NCBI GenBank assembly: GCA_014905635.1
Contig: CM026547.1
Location: forward strand, 186,001-250,000
Direction of reading: 5' to 3'
Source: Scenedesmus sp. PABB004
Lineage: Eukaryota
Length of the DNA stretch: 64,000 bases
This document shows positions 36,716 to 59,200 of this stretch, piece by piece (positions within the stretch are counted from its first letter, which is position 1; each line of letters begins with the position of its first letter). Made by a program: the position numbers and the translations under genes. Below the pieces are notes generated by a model. The model saw nothing but the letters and a program-made list of their open reading frames with translations. It made no database searches and was not told the origin of the DNA.

Positions 36716-38870
36716 ATGGCGATGGAGCACGAGCCCATCGTGTTCAGCCTGGAGGCGGCGGAGGCGGAGAAGTCCGCGCTGGAGGAGGAGCGCGAGCTGC
36801 ACCGGCAGCGGTGCGCGCGCCGCCGCGCCGCGGAGCAGCGGAGCAGCGGCGCCCAGCGCCGCCGCCGCCGCCGCCCACGCCGCCGCTTACACGCCGCCGC
36901 CGCCGCCGCCGCCGCCGGGCGCGCAGCGCCGAGCGCTTTGGCACGGGCTACGTCGACCCCGCGAAGCTGCCCAAGTTTGCGCTCGAGGCGCGGCGCGAGC
37001 GCCAGCGGCGCGAGGGCTTTGCGACCGGGATCGATCTCTTCAGCGAGGTGACGCGCGGCGCCGCCACGGGGCACGCGGCGCGGCAGCGACGTGGCAGCGG
37101 CGCGGCAGCAGCGTAGCGGGGCGGCGTGGCCGCGGCGGGCGCAGCAGGCGCCGGCGGCGGCGGGGCGCGCCCGGCTCGCCGCCGCCGGGCCGCGCCGCGG
37201 GCCGAGCCGCGCCGCGCCGCCGCGCAGGAGGAGGCGGCCAAGCGCGCCGCGCGCGCGCTCAAGTTCGGGCTGCCCGAGGAGGCCGCGCCGGGCGCGGCGT
37301 ACACGCTCGACCCCGAGGAGGCCAAGCGCGCGGCGCGGGCCAAGAAGTTTGGCGTCGAGTACGCGCCGCCCAACCCCGACACGCTGCTGCAGAAGGCCGG
37401 TGCGCCACGAGCCCGGGCTGGGCGGCGCGCCGCGGCGCCACAAACGCCGTGAGCGCCGCCGCGGCGCCGCCGCCGATGCTTCCGCCGCCCGCGCGGCGCG
37501 TCGTCGCGCAGACCTGTTTGAGCCGCGCAAGGACGCGCCGCCGGACGTGCCGCGGCGCGAGGCGGCGATCTACCTGTATGGCGTGGACGTGATGAGCACG
37601 GCCGACTGCCTGGCCTACTTCGAGGACTATGGGCCCACGCTGGTGGAGTGGATCAACGACAGCAGCTGTGCGGCGGCGGCCGCGCGGCGCGGCGGGAAGG
37701 GGGCCGCGCGGCGCGGCGGGGGCTGCGCCTGCGGCGACGGGCGCGCGCTGAGCAACCGCTGAGCGCCCGCGCCCGCGCGCCGCGCAGGCTGCGTGGTGTT
37801 TGAGGACGGCGGCAGCGCGCGGCGCGCGATCGCGGGGACAGGGCACCCGCTCGCCGGCGAGGATGAGCTCGCGGCCGCGCCGGACGACATGGACGCCGCG
37901 ATGGGCGAGCTCGACGCCGCGGCGGCGATGCCGCTGCGGTGGCACAAGGGCCGCGACTTTGTCAAGGGCCGCGACGCGCGCGGCAAGGAGATCAAGGCGC
38001 GCAGCACGCAGCACGCAGCGCGCAGCACGCAGCGCCCCGCCGCGCGGCGTACGCTCGAGGTGGGGCGGCGGCGCGCGGCACGCGCCACATGGGCACCGCC
38101 GCGCCACGCGCCGCGCCGCGTCAGGTGCCGCTGATGTACCGCATGGCGACCGACCTTGACCAGAAGGACCCTCACGAGGAGAAGCGCAGCCGCTTCCTCT
38201 GGAAGGTGGGCGGGCGGGGCGGGGCTTAGGGCTTAGGGAAGCGCTCATGCGGCGGCTGACCCAGCGGCGCGGGCGGGGCGCTCGCGCCGCGCCGCGCCGC
38301 GCGCGAGCCGAGCGGAGCGCCGCGCGCGCGCGCCGCAGGGCAAGCGGCGGCGAGAGGAGGGCGGCCGTGCGCGGCGCCAGCGCGGCGACGGCGGCGGCGA
38401 GTGGGAGGACGCGGGCGGCTGGGAGGACGGCGGCGACGCGGAGATGCAGCAGGCGCGCGGGCGCAAGCGGCGCGCGCGCGGCAAGCGGCGCAAGGGCGCC
38501 GAGGGCGACGTCGACATGGCAGACGCGCAGCTGGTGAGCCGCCGTGGCGCTGCTGCCGCGCGCAGCCGGCGGCGCTGCTGCCGCAGCCCGCAGCAGGCGC
38601 GGCGGCGCTGCTGCCGCAGCCCGCGGCAGGCGCGGCGGCGCTGCTGCCGCAGCCCGCGGCAGGCGCGGCGGCGCTGCTGCCGCAGCCCGCGGCAGGCGCG
38701 GCGGCGCTGCTGCCGCAGCCCGCGGCAGGCGCGGCGGCGCTGCTGACGCACGCGCGCTGCGCCGCGCGCAGGACGGCGGCGGCGGCGGCCGGCCGGCGGA
38801 CGAGGGCTGGATCGAAGTGCCCCAGGACGAGCCGGCGGGCGCGGAGCCGGCGGCGGCCGAGGAGGGCTGA
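36716..38870 (+). CDS. NCBP3: Nuclear cap-binding protein subunit 3-like
   Basis: Repeated RA.RFG motifs, [62 protein letters not shown]. Confidence 0.85.
38568..38745. repeat. Intronic minisatellite, ~5.4 copies of a 33-bp unit (GGCGGCGCTGCTGCCGCAGCCCGCGGCAGGCGC)
   Basis: Directly visible tandem copies in the last NCBP3 intron; the first copy has one substitution. Confidence 0.9.
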
Positions 38871-45451: not shown

Positions 45452-47852
45452 TCACTGCCGCACGCGCGACTTGAGCTCGGCGGCGATCACCGCGCGCACG
45501 TCGCCGCACGCGCTGTCGGGGATGCGCTCCGGCGCGCCCTGGTCCAGCACGTCTGCAAACTCCTCCGTGAGCTCCTGCGCGCGCGGCGCAGCGGCCAGCC
45601 GGGGTCGGCAGCGCCGGGCGGCACACACAGCTGCCCGGGCGAGGCGGGTCGGCCGCGCGACGGGCGTGGCAGGCGCCGCCGCCCTGCGCGGCGCGGGGCC
45701 GCCCCTGCGGGCGCACCAGGAACACGTCGTCCATGCCGCTGCCGTCGAATGGCATCTCCGACGACGCCTGCGCGCCGCGCGCACGCGGCGGCCGCCCGCG
45801 GCGGTTGACCGCCGCAGCGGTCCCAGGCGGCGGTCTCCCGCCGCCGCGCGGCGGCCCCGGGTGGCAGTCCGCCGCTGCCGCGGCGCAGTCCCCGCGCCGC
45901 ACCTGCACGCCGAGCAGCAGGCGGCAGATGACGGCAAAGACGCAGGCGGCCACGTAGGGCGCGGGGCAGGCGCCGTCGGGGCCGAGGTCGTGCGCGTCGC
46001 ACGTGCCGACGTGGCGGAAGTACGGCCCCAGCAGCAGGGCCCCCAGGTAGATCAGCAGCGAGCAGCAGTGCCGCAGCATGAATGGCGTGCGGTAGATCTG
46101 CGCGGCGCGCCGGCGGCGCGGTGAGCCGCGCGCGCGCGCGCGGCAGGGGCTCGCTGCGCGCGGCCCGCGCGGGGTCAGCGCGCGGGGTCGGTGCCACGAG
46201 TGCTGCTGGCCGCGCCGCGCCGCGCCTTGATGAGCCGCAGCTGCTCCGTCTGGGCCATGAGGTAGCGAAAGTATTGGCTCGTGCGGCTCATGCCGCCCTC
46301 GCCTGCGGCGGTGCGCCGCGCCGCGCCGCGCGCCGCGCGTCGCCGCGGGCGGCGCGCCGGCGTCCCGCGCGCCCCCCTGCGCCAGCCCCCGCCGCGTGGC
46401 GAGGGAGGGGCGCCGCCCCGCGCGCCCCGCACTGCCCCGGGGCGCACCGCCTTTCGAGTAGCCCGCCTTGAACCCCAGCAGCTCGTTCATCACGCTCATG
46501 CGACTCAGCGACCGGTACACGCCCACCAGGTGCCTGCGCGCGCGGCCGGCGTCGGCAGGCGGCGGCGTGGGCAGGCGGGGCGCGGGCGTCGACGCGGGGC
46601 GAGGCGGGCGCGGCGCGCGGCGCCGGCGTGCGCGCCTGTGGCCGGGCAGGCTGCGGTTGACGTGCTGCACGCGGCCGATGAAGCTCTCGGTCAGCGCCTC
46701 GGGGTCGGGGTGCAGCTGCGTCTCGCCCAGCAGCAGCCCCGCCGCCAGCCGGGGGCGCAGCACGCTCAGCCGCGCCTCGGACAGCGACTCGTAGCCCTCT
46801 GTGTGCGCCGGCGCAGCGCTCGGGGCGGCGCGCCGCCGTCACGGGCGCTGCGGCGGGCGCGGCGCCGCGGCGGGCGCGGCGCGGCGGCGCACCGTGCGTC
46901 GTGAGGTAGGCCTGCAGGTGGGTCAAAAACTCCATGGCGACGTTGGCAAACTGCGGGCAAGCAGCAGGGGGTCGGCGGCGCACCGGGCGCCGACGGCCGG
47001 GCGCGCCGGCCGGGCGCTGCGCGGTCGCTGGCCCCCGCGCCCCCGCGGCGCCAGCGGGCGGCGCACCTCCACCGCCCACGCGTGGCGGTCGTCGCCGAGC
47101 GAGGCTGGGTAGCTGCCGTCCTGCGCGTCGGCGGGGCCCCGGCCCCGCGGGTCGGCTCCCGCCGGGCAGCACGCGACGGCGCGGCCGCTCGCGGCGGCGG
47201 CACCGCGGCCTTTGCCGCGGGCCGCACACGCGCGCCCCAGCGCACCTGGACCCAGTCGCGGTGCATCCAGTACATGGCCACCACGGACGCCTTGAGCTCG
47301 CCCAGCATCATCAGCGCGCGCTCGCGCCTGCGCCCCGCCCGCGGCGCCGCTCGGCGCCACTGGGCTGGCTGCACGGCCGCCGCCACTGGGCCGCGCCGCG
47401 CACACCGCCGCGCCGCACCGCGTGAAGGACTGGGTCAGGTTGAGCGTGAGCGGCAGGGAAATGGAGAGGCTGACGAGCGAGAAGTCGATGTTGATCGGCG
47501 ACAGCCCGAGCCAGCCCGCCGCCCACACGCTGGCGCACGACAGGCTGCACAGGAGCAGCGTGTGCACGTTGAAGCAGTAAGCCGCCGCCCGCACCAGGCG
47601 CCGCGCCTCACGGCCCAAGCTCCCCTGCGCCATGGCGCCACCCCGTAGAGCGGCGCACTGCTGCGGCTGCGCGGCACCCGCGGCGGCGGCGTCGCCGCTG
47701 CTGCTCCGCGCCCGGTGTGTCGCGACGCGCCCGGCGCTGCGCAGCTGCGGTGACTCTCGCGCGTTCGTCCCTGTCCCGCTTGGTAGGCAGCGCAGCGCAC
47801 TTGGCCAGCGAGGGCGCGGCAGTGCGCCGGGCACACGGTCCCGCGAGAGCAT
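45452..47852 (-). CDS. Bestrophin-like membrane protein, multi-exon
   Basis: TM pair followed by SLPLTLNLTQSFTRRERAL..LGELKA; later IYRTPFMLR plus TM pair and SEMPFDGSGMDDV (bestrophin-like TP..Y and E.PF..DD signatures). Start is 47852 or 47633. Confidence 0.7.
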
Positions 47853-48196
47853 CACGGCACGGGGGCGCAAAAACCCGCCCGCGCGGCTTCGGCGTGAAGG
47901 GCGCGACCGCACAGCGGCTATCGCCTGTTCGCGCCGCCCGCCCGCGCTGCGGCGACGGTCAACGGCGGCACGCGGCGCGGCGCGGCGACCGATCGCCCGG
48001 CCGGCGCGGCGCGGGGACCGCGGCGGGCCGGCGAGCCCCTGTTTATTACTGCGGTGCCTGCACCCGCAACGCAACAACTCACCAACCGCGCCCCCGGTCA
48101 CGCGCGCACCAGGCTTCCCCCGCCGCGGCTGCGCGGCGTGCGCGCCGGCGACCGCCGCGCCGCCCCCGCCGCCCGCCTCGCGCAGCGCGGCGCCGC

Positions 48197-48349
48197 CTAG
48201 GCGGTGGGGTAGTCCTTGGCGCTCTTGTGGCGGTTGCAGCGGGGCTCGCCGTTGACGATAGAGGTGGTCATGACCTTGCACTGCTGATCGGTCGTCTTGG
48301 TCATCGCCACGCACTGCTCGGCGGGGCGGTCGCTCTTCTTGGGCGCCAT
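48197..48349 (-). CDS. 50-aa C-x10-C-x13-C-x2-H zinc-finger-like microprotein (left copy)
   Basis: CACCGCCATGG start right after an acceptor; MAPKKSDRPAEQCVAMTKTTDQQCKVMTTSIVNGEPRCNRHKSAKDYPTA*; alignable with the right copy. Confidence 0.75.
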   Translation of the reverse strand: MAPKKSDRPAEQCVAMTKTTDQQCKVMTTSIVNGEPRCNRHKSAKDYPTA

Positions 48350-49659
48350 GGCGGTGGACTGCGGGGCGCGGCGGCGCGGGCGGCGCGCGCGGGCGGCGTG
48401 GGGCGGCGCGCGCGCAGCAGCAGCGGCGGCGCGCTGCGCGCCCCGCGCGCGCCGGGCGGGGCGCCGCGCCCGCCGCGGCCCCGCTGGCGCGGCCCCGGGC
48501 CCCATGCTGGCACCGCGGGTCCGCCGGGGTGCCTCGAGCGGCGCGTGGCCGCACCTGGGCGGGTCGAGAGCAGCAGGACGCGGGCGGGATGCCGGCCTGC
48601 GCGCGGGGCCGGCGGGGCGCGGGCGCTGGAGCATGGGCGCGAGTTCGGGGCGCACCGGGCGGCCACGCCGAGCCGCGAGGCGCGCCCACGGCCTCCCACG
48701 CGCCCCGCTGCTGCGCGTGACGGCCTCACGCGAGGCTGAAGAGGGCTTGCAGAGGAGCTGGAGGACGGCTGTGGCGGTGGAGTGGGGCCGGAGGCGGGGG
48801 CGAGGCGGCATGAGCGCGCCGCGCCGCGGCGACCGGCTGTAGCACGCCACTACGGCCGCCCGCCTCCCGCCGGTCGCAAACAGCACGGGGCGGGCCCGCG
48901 GGCCGGATCGTGGTGGGAGGGAGCGCTGGGCGCCCGCCGGCGGCGCGCGGCAGCCGGCAGCAAGGCGGTCGCGATCGGCGCGGCGCGCGAACGCAGGGCG
49001 CCGGTGCTGCTGCGCAGCCCGCCGCCACGGAGAGCGCCGCCGCCGCCGCCGCGCGCCGCCGGCGGGCGCCCAGCGCTGCCTCCCACCACGATCCGGCCCG
49101 CGGGCCCGCCCCGTGCTGTTTGCGACCGGCGGGAGGCGGGCGGCCGTAGTGGCGTGCTACAGCCGGTCGCCGCGGCGCGGCGCGCTCATGCCGCCTCGCC
49201 CCCGCCTCCGGCCCCACTCCACCGCCACAGCCGTCCTCCAGCTCCTCTGCAAGCCCTCTTCAGCCTCGCGTGAGGCCGTCACGCGCAGCAGCGGGGCGCG
49301 TGGGAGGCCGTGGGCGCGCCTCGCGGCTCGGCGTGGCCGCCCGGTGCGCCCCGAACTCGCGCCCATGCTCCAGCGCCCGCGCCCCGCCGGCCCCGCGCGC
49401 AGGCCGGCATCCCGCCCGCGTCCTGCTGCTCTCGACCCGCCCAGGTGCGGCCACGCGCCGCTCGAGGCACCCCGGCGGACCCGCGGTGCCAGCATGGGGC
49501 CCGGGGCCGCGCCAGCGGGGCCGCGGCGGCGCGGCGCCCCGCCCGGCGCGCGCGGGGCGCGCAGCGCGCCGCCGCTGCTGCTGCGCGCGCGCCGCCCCAC
49601 ACGCCCGCGCGCGCCGCCCGCGCCGCCGCGCCGCGCAGTCCACCGCCATGGCGCCCAAG
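48338..49659. repeat. Long inverted repeat: arms ~48338-48951 and ~49048-49659, ~96-bp unique spacer
   Basis: Arms are reverse complements with symmetry centre ~48999.5, also shown by mirror-image ORFs in the track (48850..49089 vs 48910..49149). Few differences, e.g. 48921/49078 and near the intron 3' end. Confidence 0.97.
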
Positions 49660-49848
49660 GCCGCGGCCAAGAAGGCGGAGCCCGAGGAGAAGGAGCCGGG
49701 GCAGTGCGTCGCGTTGACGCTCAAGGGCCACCGCTGCACCAACGTCACGACCCGCACCGTCAAGGGCGCCCACCGCTGCCACGCCCACCGCGCCTACAGC
49801 AAGTACCCCGCCTTTGACGAGGTGGAGGCGGACGAGTCCTCCGAGTAG
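49648..49848 (+). CDS. 66-aa C-x9-C-x13-C-x2-H zinc-finger-like microprotein with acidic tail (right copy)
   Basis: 5' UTR intron 49445-49638, CACCGCCATGG, MAPKAAAKKAEPEEKEPGQCVALTLKGHRCTNVTTRTVKGAHRCHAHRAYSKYPAFDEVEADESSE*; strong GC3 codon bias. Confidence 0.8.
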   Translation: MAPKAAAKKAEPEEKEPGQCVALTLKGHRCTNVTTRTVKGAHRCHAHRAYSKYPAFDEVEADESSE

Positions 49849-50386
49849 CGCGGGCCCCGCGCCGGCCCAACCTGCCGAGCCCTGGGGGCGGGAGGCGCGC
49901 CGCGCGCGCGGCGGCCGAGTTGGCGCGCGCTGCGCCGCGCGTTGGCGTTGGCGTTGCACGTTGAGGCGGCAGGTTTGGGGGGCAGGCAGGGCCGTCGGTC
50001 GCGCCCAGGTAACGCGCTGCCGCTCGGCGCCGCCGGCGGCGCCGCTCGGCCGCCCACCAGCGCGCGCCGCGTGCCGCCACCTCCGCGCCGAGCTGCCTGG
50101 CCGGCGCGCGCGCCGCCGCCGCCGCCGCCGCCGCAGCCGCCGCGCCGCCGCCGGTGCCGCAGCTGCCCAGCTCCTGGCGCTGGCCCAGCTCTTCGCCGCT
50201 CGCGCGCCGCGGCCGGGGCGCGTGCAGAACCGCACCGCCTGCTCGCCAACGGTGCTCTGCTTCCCTCTGCTCTGCTCCCTCCACACACACCTGAGCAGCT
50301 CGTGCGCCCAGCCCGCGCGGAGCGAGAGCAGCTGGCCCCGCCGGTCGGCCGCCGTTTCAAACGCGGCGCGCTGCCGCCGCCGCGCG

Positions 50387-51139
50387 ATGCAGCCCGCCAT
50401 CCGCTGCGCCGACCCGCCTGAGGCGCCGTCGGTGCACTGGCTGCCGTTCGGCATCGGCCATGAGGGCCCCGCGGCCGTGGGGACCTACTGGGCGGTCGAG
50501 CCAGGCGCGGCCGCTGCTGCTGCCCACGCCGCCGCCCCCGCGCAGCGCCGCCTCCCCCTTGCGCGCGCCTCATGCTCTGACCACGCCGCAGAGGCGTCCG
50601 GGGACGGCAGCGGCGCCGCCGTGTGCACCGCGCACTTTCGCGGCCGGCGGCTCAAGGGTGGGGCACGCCCGCCGCGTGCGCGCGCGCGCGCCGGGGCGGC
50701 CGCCGACTGCGCGCGCGCCCCGCGCGTGCTCACGCCGCCGCCGCGCGCCCGCCCACCCACACAGGCGCGCACAAGCAGCTGCCGGCGGGCTTCCGCGGCC
50801 TGGTGCTGCGCCCCGCGGGCGGCGGGGCGGCGCCGACACCGAGCAGCGCAGCTGGCAGGCGGTGCAGCAGTTCCGGGGCCTCACGCTCTGGAACCACGAC
50901 GCGCCGCCCGCGCCCAGCGACTGGCACGCGCGCTGTATCGACTGGCTCGCGCTGGCGGAGCAGGCGCGCGCTGGGCGCGCTGGGCGCGCTGGGCGTGTCG
51001 TGCCGGGCCCGGGGCCGAGCGCGGGGCCGCCTGCTGCGCCGCTCCGCAGGTGCACGCGCCGGTGACGCTGGAGGCGGTCGAGGCGGAGCTGGCGAGCATG
51101 CAGCAGCAGCAGCAGCAGCAGGGTGGCGGCGGGAGCTGA
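50387..51139 (+). CDS. RNASEH2C: Ribonuclease H2 subunit C; apparent 1-nt frameshift near 50825
   Basis: VHWLPFGIGHEGPAAVGTYW, AHFRGRRLKG, LPAGFRGLVL, FRGLTLWNHDAPP, CIDWLALAEQVH. Confidence 0.9.
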   Translation: MQPAIRCADPPEAPSVHWLPFGIGHEGPAAVGTYWAVEPGAAAAAAHAAAPAQRRLPLARASCSDHAAEASGDGSGAAVCTAHFRGRRLKGGARPPRARARAGAAADCARAPRVLTPPPRARPPTQARTSSCRRASAAWCCAPRAAGRRRHRAAQLAGGAAVPGPHALEPRRAARAQRLARALYRLARAGGAGARWARWARWACRAGPGAERGAACCAAPQVHAPVTLEAVEAELASMQQQQQQQGGGGS

Positions 51140-51784
51140 GCTGGGGATGGATGCGTGGTTGCGTTACAGGCGCCGCGGGCGGCGAGAGCGCAGTGACGAT
51201 GATGAGCGTGCCAGCCGGGCGGCCAGCCCTGGAGGGCGCGGCGACCCCCGCAGTGCGTGTTATCTCTAGTCGGCGGCCCCGATGACGGCTGCGCCTCAAA
51301 ACGCCGGGCCGCAAGCACGCACACACGCAAAGCACGCACAGCACGCACGCGACAACTGGCAGCAGACGCCAGCGCTCCGCCCCAGGGGATCGCGCCGGCG
51401 CCGGTGCGCCGCTCCCGTCCCGCGCGCTGCAGTGGGGCTGGCACCGCCCATGATCGCCCTGGCCCTAGGTCAAGTGCTGCTCACGTTCCTGCGAGCGCGG
51501 CTCTGCGTCGCAGCAGGCCCGCCGCCGGCTGCGCCCCGCCTGGCGGCCGGGCGGCAAATCATCCATCGTCCCTCCCCGCCGCCCTCTCCCTGCAGCGCCG
51601 GTCTCGCAGCGCGCGGGCGTGCACGCGTCGCGCGCGCGCGGGCGCGCTCGGCGGCGCCGCCAGCGGGGCGGGCGCCGCCGCCCTGGAGGGAGACGAGCTC
51701 GTCTCCGCTGCCCCCCGCCCTCTCCCTGCCCCCAGCCGCGCCGCGCCGCGCCGCGCCGCGCGCTGCCCCGGCAGTGCCGCCAGG

Positions 51785-54370
51785 TCAGTCATCGACCAGC
51801 ACCACGCGCGCGTCGCACAGCTCGGGGTGGAGGTGCTTGTACTTGGCAAAGAGCTCCACCAGCGAGCTGTAGTAGGCGCTGCGGGTTCGATGGGCGCCGC
51901 GGGCGGCAGCAGCAGTGAGCGCGAGCGGGCGGCGGCAGTGAGCGCGAGCGGGCGGCGCGGCGCCGCCGGCGCGGTGGCAGTCGCCATCAGCACCTGTGCA
52001 GCGCGTCGACGTCGGCCTGCGCCGCCGGCACGCCCGGCGCGAGCGGCGGCGGCGTGAGCGGCGCGCCCACGACGTACACGAGCGGCGTGCGGCGCGGGAA
52101 CGGCGTCACGCCCCAGCGCCCGGTCAATATGAAGGGGACCGGGAAGCCTAAGGCGGCGCGGGAGCACGCGGCGGCGACGGCAGGTGGCAGGCGGGCAGAC
52201 GAGCAAGCGTGGGCCGGCGCCTGCGGGCGCGCGCGCACGCGCTGTGCTGCGCGGCGCGCTGCGTCGGTTCGCTTTCGAGTCTGCGCATGTCCCTGCTCCG
52301 CGCGCACCGAAGCGCTTGTAGGTGAACTGCGCGAGCGCCGGCAGGTCCACGGCGTTGCGCAGCTGCAGGCTCTCGCCCAGCGCCAGCACCGGCACGAGCG
52401 CCGCCTGGTGCTCGATCGCGATCCTGCGGCGGCACCGCGGCGGCGCGGCGGCTGAGCGCAGCGCAGCGCGCGAGGCCGGGGCGGCGTGGTGGCGCGCGTG
52501 CGCGCGGCACGCGGCGCCGCGGCGCGGCGCGCCGCGCCTGCAGAAGCCCTTGTGCCGCGTGTGCAGCACGAGCTCGCGCGCGCCCGCGCGGAACGCGCGG
52601 CCCGTATGCACCAGCTCCGCCTGCCCGCCGGGGCAAAACATGATGGCGCCGGCCTCCTCGAGCGCGGCGAGGAAGGTGGGGCGCGAGACCTGGCGGAAGC
52701 CCGCCCAGCTGATGACGTCGCGGATGAACGGCGGCGCGAAGAGCGCGCTCGCCGCGAGGCTCACGGGCGGCGGCCGCCCCGGCGGCAGGCCGGTTCGGAA
52801 GCTCGGCATCATCGGCAGGAAGCCCGCGCCGGTCGGGTAGAGGCCGTGCGGCGCGAAACCGTACATGACCTTTTTGCCGGCCGCGCCGGCGCCCCCCGCT
52901 GCCGGCCGGGCGCCCTCCTCGGCTGCGCCCGGCGGCTGCGCGCCGGCGTGCGCCGGCGCGTCGTGGACGACGCGGACGTGCCCAAACCAGTGCGCGAGCG
53001 AGCCCTCAATGTTGGCCTCAAACCAGGAGAGCAGCCACGGCCAGCGCCGGCGGCCTGCGGCGGCCCGCGCGCAGCGGCGGCGGCGCGTGGTCGGCCGGCG
53101 CACGCGCGCGCCCACACACGGGGCGCAGGCACGCCACGGGCACGGCGCGGCGCGGCGCGGCGCGCACCCGTGTGCGCGGGGCGGCCGGCCGAGGAGAGCG
53201 CGTAGTAAGGCACCAGGAAGGCGGCCCAGCCGGTGAGCGCGGCGCGCGTGGGCAGGAAGGCAAAGGAGAGCGCCCAGAGGCTGAAGAAGACGTGGACTGG
53301 CAGGTACATCAGCAGCACCTGCGCGGTGGGAGGGCGGATGGCAGAGGCAGGGGCGGCGCCGGCGGCGGCCAGCGGTCGGCGGCGCAGCGGCGCAGCGGCG
53401 CAGTGGCGGCGGTGGCGCGCGCGCCGCACGCACTGGCATGTTGGCGCCGACCCAGCCCTGCCGCGGCTGCAGCGTCGAGCTCAGCGCGCCGCTCGCGGCG
53501 CGGATGAGCTTGGCGGCGGCGCTCTTGGGCCCCCGGAAGAGCAGCAGGGACACGGCCAGCATCTGCGCGCCGCAGCGCGCCGCGGCGCGGTGAGCGGGCA
53601 GGCAGCACGGCCGCCGCCGACCGCGCGCCGCCGGGCGCAGCCCACCGCACCCCGCCCCCGCCCCCAGCGCCGCCGCGCCGCGCCGCGCACCGCCTGCGCC
53701 AGCAGCATGAGCGCGCCCGCGCCGATGGCCCAGCAGCGGAAGCACGCCGCCACGCCAGCCGCGAGCTGCTGCAGCAGCGCAACGAGGAGCACCACGGTCG
53801 CCGCAAACGTGCTCCACGAGATCGCCTGCGTCGTCACAAACGCTGTCCCGCCTGCGCGCGCGCGCGCGCGCGCGCGTGCGCGCGTCGGCGGCGGCCGCAG
53901 GCGCTCGCGCGCGCCCCCGGGCAGCGTGCGCCCCGGGCGGCGCCCGCGGCGCGCGCCGCACCCTCAAACGGCTGCACAAACCGCCAGACGCCCTCGCCGC
54001 CCCCGCCCGCGCCGCCGTAGCGCAGCCAGCCGCCCAGGCCGTAGGTGGTGCTCGCGGCGATAAGGAGGCAGCAGAGCGAGAGGCAGCAGTAGAGCACGCT
54101 GCGGCGGCGCCGGCGGTGGCGGCGGCGCGGGCGGGGCGGGGCGCGCTCGGCCGCGACGGGCGACGGGTGCCGGGCGGGCGCGGCGGGAGGGCGTGCGCGG
54201 CGCGGCGGCGGGGCGCGGCGGGTGTGCCCCGCCGGGCGTCAAAAGCCAGGCGGCGCACCGCGAGGGGATGTCAGGGAGGTATTCGAGCGCGAGCAGCAGC
54301 AGGCAGCCGGTCAGGGAGAGGAGCAGCCCGAGGCCTACGACCACCGCCGACGCGAGCACGGGGCGCGGCT

Positions 54371-56281: not shown

Positions 56282-59200
56282 TCAGGGGCGACAGTTGGCC
56301 GCCTCGTCGGCGCTGGTGGCGAGCCGCACCCTGCCGCCGGGCAGGGCCTCGATGGCGGCCTTGGCCTCGGCGAGGCCGGTGAGGCCAGGGTTGCCGAACA
56401 ATTCCAGGCAGCGCAGCTTGAACGTGGGCCCCGCCATGACCTGCCAGACCTGGGGCACCGTGCCGATGAACGCGTTGCCGCTCACGTCGAGCGCCACCAG
56501 CTCGCGCATGCTCGCGTAAGCCCCGGGCAGCGTGCCAGTGAACGCGTTGCCGCTCACGTCGAGCGCGGTCAGCGACGTCAGGCGCGCGAGCGCCTCGGGC
56601 AGCGGCCCGGTGAGCGCGTTGCCGCCGAGGCGCAGCTCCTGCGCGCGTGCCACCGCCGCAGGCGGCGAGGGGAGGCGGGTCGGCGCGCGCGGCGCGGCAC
56701 CACCCTGGCGGCGCGGGTTGGGCGGCGGCACTGCAACCCTGCGCGCAGCCCTGCGCCCGCGCTCGCACCTGGAGCTGCTCCAGGTCCGCAAAGGCCAGGG
56801 GGATGCTGCCGGCGAGGCCGCCGTTGCGGCTGAGGTCGAGGACGCGGAGCTGAGTGAGCGCGGCAAAGCCCGCGGGCAGCGGGCCGGACAGCTTGAGGCG
56901 CGACAGCACCAGCACCTCCAGCCGTTCCAGGCCCAGCACGCTGGGGCTCGCCGCGGCCGCGACCGCGGCGCCGGCGCTGGCACCGCTGCCACCGCCGCCG
57001 CGCAGGGCCGCCTCGGCCGCGCGCGCCGCGCGCGCCGCCACGACCGCATGCGCCCGCGGCGCCGCGCCGGGCGTGGCCGCGGCGGCGCGCGCCGCCGCCG
57101 CCGCGGCGCGCGCCTCGGCGAGCGCGGCGTCTGCGACGCGGCGCATCGCGGCCGCGTCGGCCCACTCTGCGGGCAGGCCGCCGCTGATGGGCGCGCCGCT
57201 GACGACCAGCTCGGTCAGGCTCTTGAGCAGGCCCAGGCTCGGCGGCAGCTCGCCGGACAGCCCGGTGCAGCCCGCCGCGCGCAGCACGCGGAGCTGCTGC
57301 AGCGACGCCCAGCCGGGCAGGCCGCCGGTGAGGCCGGTGCACTGCGACACGTCCAGGACCTGGAGCGCGGTCAGGCCGGCCCACATGTCTGGGATGGGGC
57401 CGGTGAGCGCGGGGTTGCGGCTGAGGTCCAGCACCTCGAGCGCGCCCTGGCGCATCGGCAGGTCCGCGGGCAGCGGCCCCGACACGCCGAGGCGGCTGAC
57501 GTTGAGGCTCCGGAGATAGGGCAGGTCTCCGAGCGCGTCGATCAGCTCCGACAGACTCAGCGCCGCGCCCGGGCGCAGCGTCAGCCCCAGGCCGGCGAGG
57601 TCGAGCCCCGACACGTGGTTGGACGCGTCGCACGAGACGCCCTTCCACAGCCGGCAGTAGCGCGGCGCGGTGCCGGGGCCTGGCAACGCGCGCGGGGGCG
57701 CGGGCGGGCGCGCGTGAGTGAGGGCGGCGCGGCGGCGGCCGAGGGCCGGCGGCGGGAGGGCCGGGTGCGGCCGCGCGCACCTGCGCCGATTGCGGGGTCG
57801 CCGGTCCAGTTGCCGAGCACGTCGACGTTGGTCACGCGCGTCCCGAGCAGCACCGCGAGGCCCTGCAGCGCGGCGACCTCGCTGCTGTTGCGCGCGCAGT
57901 CGGGCAGGAGGTTCGGCGTGAACGCGACGAGCCCGCTCGGGCGGCACCCTGAGATGCCGGCCGTGCCGAGCAGGTTGACGCAGCCGGACGAGAACCACGC
58001 CCACGACGCGGGGATGGCGCCGGTGACGTTGGTGCTGTCGACCCAGATGTTTGCGTAGCGCGGCATGACCTGCGCGTCGCCCCACTCGGACGGCATGGTG
58101 CCGCTGATGCGCGGGTTCTCGCCGAGCCACAGCATGCGCAGCTTCGCCGCGTCCTTGAGCCCCGGCGGCAGCGTGCCGCTCAGGTCGTTCTTGCCCAGGC
58201 CGAGGACCTCCAGGTTGGCCCAGCTCCCGTAGCTCCCCGGCACGGGGCCGGTGAGCCAGGAGTCGATGATCTGGAAGCTCCTCATGTAGGGGCTCGCGGC
58301 GGGGAGGTCGGGCGGGAGCAGCTGCTCGCTGCGGTTGGACCACTTGGGCGGGTAGAGCTCGCACCTGCGCCGCGCCGGCCGGCCGGCCGGCGCCGCACGC
58401 GGGGTCAGGTTCGGCGCGGTCGGCCGCCGCCGCCGAGGGCGCGCGCCGGCGCAAGCCCCGCCCCGCCCCGCCGCTGCGTCCCGCCCCGCCGCCGCACACC
58501 GCGCGCGCACGCAAGGCCGCCGCACCAGTTGCACTCGAAGTAGTCGAGGCGCGGCAGCGCGGCGGCAAGCTCCGTCATGCGCGCCATGCTCAGCGCGCCG
58601 CGCTCGCCCCTGATGGACGTGACGTAGGCGGTGCTGCCGATGAGGGTGATCGTGAGCGTCACGCGCACCTCCTCGCCCTCGCGGTAGCGCCGCGTCGCGC
58701 TGACCTGGTCGGCCGGCAGCACGCCGCTGAGCGGGCCGAGCGCGTCGAGCCACGCGCCCCAGCCGGCGCGGAACGCGGCCGCGTGCTCGTTGGGCCCCTT
58801 GGCGATGACGTCGGGCAGCACGCTGCGCAGCGCGTCGAGCTGGCGCGCCTCGGTGTCGAGGCGGTCGTTGCGGCAGAGGCCGGTGATCTGGGTGCCGCTG
58901 AAGCCGAGCGACGACGCCGCGCTGAACGGCGCGCAGCCGGTGAGGCCGGCGTTGCCGTCGAGCTTCAGGTCCACCAGCCCGCCCGCGCGCGCCGTGAGGC
59001 ACGACCACGTCACCGGCACGTCGCCAACCTGCGCCGGCCGCGCCGGGCGGGCGGCGCGCTGAGCGGGCGGGCGGCGCAGCGGGCGGCGCGACCGCGGGGG
59101 CGCGCCAGGCGCGGTGGCGCGCGCGGCGGGCGGCGCGGCGCGTGCGGCATCGCGCGGCGGCGCGTCGCGTCACGGCGGTGCGGCGCACCAGGTGGTTGTA

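Follow-up and report, generated by a model that had tools for sequence, protein, structure and literature searches.

Two diverged finger microgenes share near-identical upstream arms

We analyzed a 64,000-nucleotide stretch of the Scenedesmus sp. PABB004 genome (contig CM026547.1, positions 186,001 to 250,000; hereafter the window), in which an inverted repeat of about 615 bp has a short open reading frame (ORF) at each outer end, the left and the right microgene, pointing apart. On balance, we favor the reading that these head-to-head paralogous ORFs, diverged in their coding parts and preceded by arms that are 99% identical, encode stand-alone microproteins that probably bind zinc and nucleic acid and are likely co-expressed, from promoters likely matched by gene conversion. 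A second pair with the same pattern was found on another contig, C39.

A six-frame scan of the window matched the finger spacing pattern in the left and right ORFs only. As the first-pass annotation had described, the peptides of 50 and 66 residues both carry an MAPK start, one Cys3His (C3H) motif and a Y-P after it, and only the right one has an acidic tail. In genome-wide searches each ORF retrieved the other (left to right, E 0.005; right to left, E 7e-4), with 46 of 126 aligned coding bases different and 19 of 42 residues identical. The GC content at the first two codon positions (GC12) is 0.50-0.57 against a far higher third-position value (GC3; Table 1), and by GC3 minus GC12 both ORFs ranked near the top of the 452 ATG-started 50-codon open frames, a statistic on which antisense frames of genuine genes score high as well. 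Both ORFs start within the 11-nt context CACCGCCATGG, of which each strand of the window has a single copy. Both strands together (128 kb) contain 28 copies of the tetranucleotide GTAA, which we take to be the core of the UGUAA poly(A) signal of chlorophytes, yet one lies 90-160 nt past the stop in each of the four microgenes of the two pairs; the chance expectation is about 0.04 per gene, for a pattern that was spotted post hoc. Overall, GC3, the common start context and a rare GTAA past each stop make the left and right ORFs look like genuine genes, in agreement with their earlier description as stand-alone microgenes.

The two halves of the repeat share a perfect core of 485 nt, and in their non-coding parts 6 of 605 columns are different, two of these through 1-nt indels within GC runs. 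Identity reaches into the ORFs as far as codon 4 and then falls. The inverted repeat is the sole long near-identical repeat in the window; a comparison meant as a control yielded no further pairs of paralogous proteins to measure it against. A genome search with the arm, in which 40 of 297 candidates were scored, gave two full-length matches, both at the microgene pair; the remaining 76 of 78 matches were short GC-rich stretches with 70-84% identity. The dispersed genomic copies of a miniature inverted-repeat transposable element or foldback transposon were thus not found among the candidates scored. The arms have no coding signature in six frames, and none of the three upstream ATGs of the right arm is in frame with the finger ORF. 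Each arm contains a small palindrome, CGCGTGA ... TCACGCG (window 49268-49286, with its mirror near 48713-48731), a possible site for a dimeric factor. The spacer contains a CGATCG site, one of 15 in the window and a possible promoter element. The 11-mer CGCGATCGGCG in the spacer (window 48970-48980) is also present in the C39 region, upstream of copy A.

From this layout, transcription would run outward from the center, through an intron in the 5' untranslated region (UTR), to separate 3' ends. Promoter and UTR would be copied from one arm to the other by fold-back repair or intrachromosomal conversion, which would stop at codon 4. Such conversion would keep promoter and UTR alike, and each pair may therefore be co-expressed while its proteins differ. 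A sequencing-run search listed no RNA run for the locus.

Table 1. Features of the microgene locus, of the C39 pair and of neighboring genes (window positions unless a locus is named).
Feature	Position	Strand	Remarks
Left microgene ORF, 50 aa (P0001)	48197..48349	-	pI (isoelectric point) 9.3; GC3 0.96, rank 1 of 452
Left finger, C-x10-C-x13-C-x2-H	48227..48313	-	pattern match
Left arm (putative promoter, 5' UTR, UTR intron and first 4 codons)	48338..48954	-	repeat search
Predicted 5' UTR intron, left gene	48359..48554	-	mirror of the right-gene intron; predicted from sequence
GTAA, presumed core of a UGUAA-type poly(A) signal of chlorophytes	48046..48049	-	about 147 nt past left stop; putative function
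Asymmetric 90-nt spacer with CGATCG site	48955..49044	.	between the arms
Right arm	49045..49659	+	no coding signature; 3 upstream ATGs
Predicted 194-nt 5' UTR intron, right gene (CAG/GTGCGG ... GCGCAG/)	49445..49638	+	ends 9 nt before ATG; predicted from sequence
Right microgene ORF, 66 aa (P0002)	49648..49848	+	pI 7.8; GC3 0.98, rank 19 of 452
Right finger, C-x9-C-x13-C-x2-H	49705..49788	+	pattern match
Acidic tail of right protein	49816..49845	+	sequence
GTAA, putative poly(A)-signal core or splice donor (CAG/GTAAC), ambiguous	50009..50012	+	160 nt past right stop
C39 finger microgenes, two-exon, tandem pair, C-x9-C-x9-C-x2-H	G000:C39, L024:1323-1626 and L024:2373-2588	both -	
MCM10 zf-primase finger (PF09329, above cut-off)	G000:C16:478419-478526, L025:1495-1602	+	E 4e-11; only one found in genome
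RNase H2 subunit C gene, own ATG	50387..51139	+	neighbor of right microgene
Diacylglycerol acyltransferase gene (PF03982, E 9e-6)	51559-53562	-	convergent with RNase H2C
Multi-exon gene, first exon hydrophobic	about 46290-47633	-	downstream of left microgene; no Pfam match in frames tried

A second pair on contig C39

A genome search with DUF5763 gave two matches below the cut-off, the MCM10 finger and a microgene on C39, which has a paralogue in tandem at a distance of about 965 bp. Both C39 copies contain an intron at the same codon position (142 nt with a GC donor in one, 66 nt with a GT donor in the other), and the predicted spliced proteins, with a short second exon, are 53 and 49 aa long. 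The GTAA lies 90 and 129 nt past their stops. Their upstream DNA is identical at 370 of 382 columns (97%), against 45 of 70 positions in the 70 nt before the ATG and 82 of 102 (80%) in exon 1, and this upstream block has only two occurrences in the genome. The unspliced C39 ORFs are absent from the protein collection.

The family is thus larger than the first-pass annotation had noted, with four copies found in the genome, a lower bound since further, more diverged copies may exist. A degenerate finger pattern run over the genome gave seven matches, the four microgenes and three non-fingers (L034, L035 and L038, rejected for want of a complete finger). A third genome match (L003) was set aside as chance and lies antisense to an apparent kinase gene. 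By eye, several apparent GC-AG introns occur in this kinase-like gene (L003:600-1800) and one in C39 copy A (L024:1521-1524), and GC donors are suggested to be common in this genome because such introns recur. Upstream of the C39 pair lies a multi-exon gene with many cysteine-rich repeats (L027:1600-4900, minus strand), which by eye we take to be Kazal-like; one frame was tried, with no Pfam match.

The C39 pair bears on how the matched arms arose. We consider it rather improbable that the upstream match has no regulatory meaning and no ongoing conversion behind it, and goes back to assembly polishing or to one recent event, either a template switch or an inverted duplication. A lone genome cannot tell one recent event from repeated conversion, and the two indels in GC runs would fit such an origin. 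Polishing may also have raised identity. No reads bridge the locus: the single DNA sequencing run contains only a 213-nt piece of an arm. However, the same pattern occurs independently at C39, and the repeat in the window breaks off in two old paralogues at homologous codons, which would not result from a simple mis-join.

Comparison of the fingers with known families

Neither a wholly new finger nor a special closeness to the plant WRC domain is supported. The class is not new: by sequence it resembles DUF5763, the MCM10 CCCH finger (ZnF1) and WRC, with further examples among small viral proteins and repeat proteins. When 1015 frames were ranked by a hidden Markov model (HMM) trained solely on 12 non-algal repeats, the first five places went to the MCM10 finger and the four microgene frames (E 2e-9 for the best, 0.002-0.04 for the others). 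The Cys/His ligands are kept in 4/4 genome copies and invariant in 7/7 aligned sequences, so the predicted conservation of Cys and His residues held in all the homologues found. The 366-aa protein P0004, encoded on a 2.5-kb contig, carries six tandem fingers with the exact C-x9-C-x13-C-x2-H spacing; no Pfam family scored above cut-off for it, and this long-loop finger subtype is missed by DUF5763. An AlphaFold2 model of a 40-residue finger (mean predicted local distance difference test score 80) shows a short hairpin and a helix, and each peptide would fold around one zinc via Cys3His.

The DUF5763 (PF19067) pattern QC-x-A-x-T-x2-G-x-RC...C-x2-H is shared by three of the four microgene copies. 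What we take to be its ligand pattern (C-x9-C-xn-C-x2-H with A-x-T and G-x-R-C) is present, except that the left copy has a first loop of 10 and lacks G-x-R. The C39 copies matched DUF5763 with E values of 3e-4 and 4e-3 (17.2 and 20.5 bits, under the curated cut-off of 26.3 bits), whereas the window peptides, which have a longer second loop (13), gave no match, neither in the family scan nor among the two genome matches. Unlike DUF5763 proteins, the microgenes are eukaryotic and paired, with matched promoters.

The MCM10 finger shares with the microgenes the CCCH ligands, a first loop of 9 and a last loop of 2, and this genome's copy scores with both the microgene-like HMM and DUF5763. It differs in its second loop (11) and acts with an OB-fold within a large protein, whereas the microproteins have no adjoining OB-fold and are too short to fit one. 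With PF09329 the best microgene score was 15.2 bits (cut-off 28.8; one C39 copy at E 0.018), and only MCM10 itself passed. The available part of one report describes MCM10 ZnF1 as a CCCH finger that binds single- and double-stranded DNA jointly with the OB-fold (PMC5333062). Likewise, the WRC domain of plant GRF/HRT-type proteins is described as a DNA-binding C3H finger with C-x9-C-x10-C-x2-H spacing, in a source whose available part reports no GRF in the four chlorophytes searched (PMC7380329). The window microgenes differ from WRC (PF08879) in spacing (10-13-2 for the left, 9-13-2 for the right) and contain neither Trp nor the W-R-C residues nor QLQ; PF08879 gave no match at the microgene loci (threshold 28.6 bits). 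Four PF08879 matches elsewhere (L041-L044) were rejected, as they contain no complete finger.

A Pfam scan of the window peptides gave no curated family above cut-off, so that no strong match to a well-characterized family emerged. Word-based homologue searches with P0002 and with an alignment found nothing, and two metagenome loci for P0001 were rejected as off-frame matches within a long bacterial ORF. Scans of viral contigs with P0004 and P0002 confirmed nothing, a phage tblastn returned two records only (E 6), and a PDB sequence search gave four matches, none significant. In PHROGs only the C39 copies had matches, to two unnamed families and weak in both cases. Fold searches found no significant match in the PDB and 273 BFVD matches at E values up to 10, many from large DNA viruses and none at 0.001. 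The nearest ESM Atlas clusters (scores 0.83-0.89) are viral proteins of 47-80 aa, one cluster having DUF5763 in 23% of its members; these serve as leads only. In the literature covered, which includes few subscription journals, we found no paper on DUF5763 by name, and no description of HGGxSTG or of such algal zinc-finger microproteins.

By analogy with MCM10 ZnF1 and WRC, the finger and basic N-terminus would bind DNA or RNA, probably weakly and with low specificity, and the microproteins may act as small accessories or competitors rather than as full transcription factors. The nuclear location and the split into activator and competitor roles suggested earlier are candidate ideas, the latter resting on the 10-residue acidic tail of the right protein only. 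Somewhat unlikely, in our view, is that the genes are real but the fingers, instead of binding nucleic acid, bind proteins or handle metal, as adaptors, inhibitors or ubiquitin-binding-like modules. A reading in which the ORFs make no protein and are relics, silent or decayed, of something such as a viral finger gene seems to us very improbable. The closest look-alikes are indeed viral, and other algae yielded no orthologue; on the other side, GC3 is host-like, the ligands are intact in every copy, the C39 pair has a common spliceosomal-type intron, and the neighbors are ordinary host genes (RNase H2C, diacylglycerol acyltransferase).

The public model joining the right ORF to RNase H2C

The microgenes had been considered unannotated. 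The exact peptides are indeed absent from public proteins, and yet residues 1-58 of the right ORF form exon 1 of a public model, P0003 (KAF8072388.1, 208 aa; window 49648-51139, plus strand), which continues into RNase H2 subunit C. The right ORF might accordingly be exon 1 of a finger-RNase H2C fusion, leaving the left ORF alone to stand by itself, a reading to which we give little weight. The model exists and maps to the window letter for letter in five blocks, an RNase H2 subunit could conceivably carry a finger that binds nucleic acid, and there is a possible second donor at 50009. However, the joining intron is 571 nt long, against gaps of 86-121 nt among the other P0003 blocks; its donor, GTGGAG, has no G at +5; its acceptor consumes RNase H2C's own ATG at 50387; and the eight codons beyond the annotated donor are all G/C-ending and run to the stop. 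In addition, a search among proteins of 114-364 aa found two close orthologues of RNase H2C in algae, with lengths of 157 and 150 aa, one of them a transcriptome ORF labeled 'complete'; both begin just before the RNase H2C motif, and the finger is missing from them. P0003 is probably a chimera because these two orthologues have no finger, and the right ORF, on this judgment, is probably a stand-alone microgene rather than an exon of a larger gene. The first-pass annotation had overlooked this model, the inverted repeat and the C39 pair.

Other features of the window

The window has a GC content of about 79% over its full length and belongs to contig C1 of a eukaryotic assembly of 40 Mb in 80 contigs; the nearest named proteins come from Scenedesmaceae-type green algae. 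The multi-exon gene downstream of the left microgene has a bestrophin-like look, as we presume. An Rfam scan of positions 47600-50500 gave no match. A 33-nt unit forms a tandem array of about six copies (window 38534-38783), with a core 98-100% identical, and window 56453-58237 (minus strand) contains coding-frame repeats at a 72-nt spacing with a leucine-rich-repeat look.

Discussion

If expressed, the microproteins would offer natural test cases of minimal size for the uncharacterized DUF5763-like finger, which is widespread in viruses: they have 50-66 aa and a single domain, and four natural variants occur within one genome. The usual pattern of duplicate genes is reversed here, promoters being near-identical and proteins far apart, and since this is observed twice in one genome, promoter-restricted gene conversion becomes directly testable. 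In practice, the analysis draws attention to an RNase H2C model that is probably chimeric and to microgenes overlooked by annotation. We also entertain, as an unlikely extension, a sphaeroplealean family of single-finger microproteins, perhaps derived long ago from giant viruses and kept in pairs whose promoters are locked by conversion as the fingers diverge, that would act as co-expressed decoys or modulators of CCCH-finger DNA proteins such as MCM10 or of the finger proteins of invading viruses; the spacer could flip through recombination and so bias expression toward one gene of the pair.

The layout of the window pair has a precedent in Chlamydomonas ZYS1A/ZYS1B, presented, in a title cited by PMC4889651, as an invertedly repeated gene pair for a putative zygotic transcription factor. 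The likeness drawn here is one of inverted-repeat layout; the ZYS1A/ZYS1B pair encodes one protein according to that title, whereas the microgene pair has diverged. No exact match to the ZYRE motif (YGACAYGAC) was found in the window, a motif that comes from Chlamydomonas and may differ here. A precedent for conversion is given by CYP1A1/CYP1A2, described in the available part of the source as old head-to-head duplicates homogenized in patches by gene conversion (PMC3199271). The converted tracts described there are coding exons, whereas the two microgenes are nearly identical in their non-coding 5' region but not in their coding sequence.
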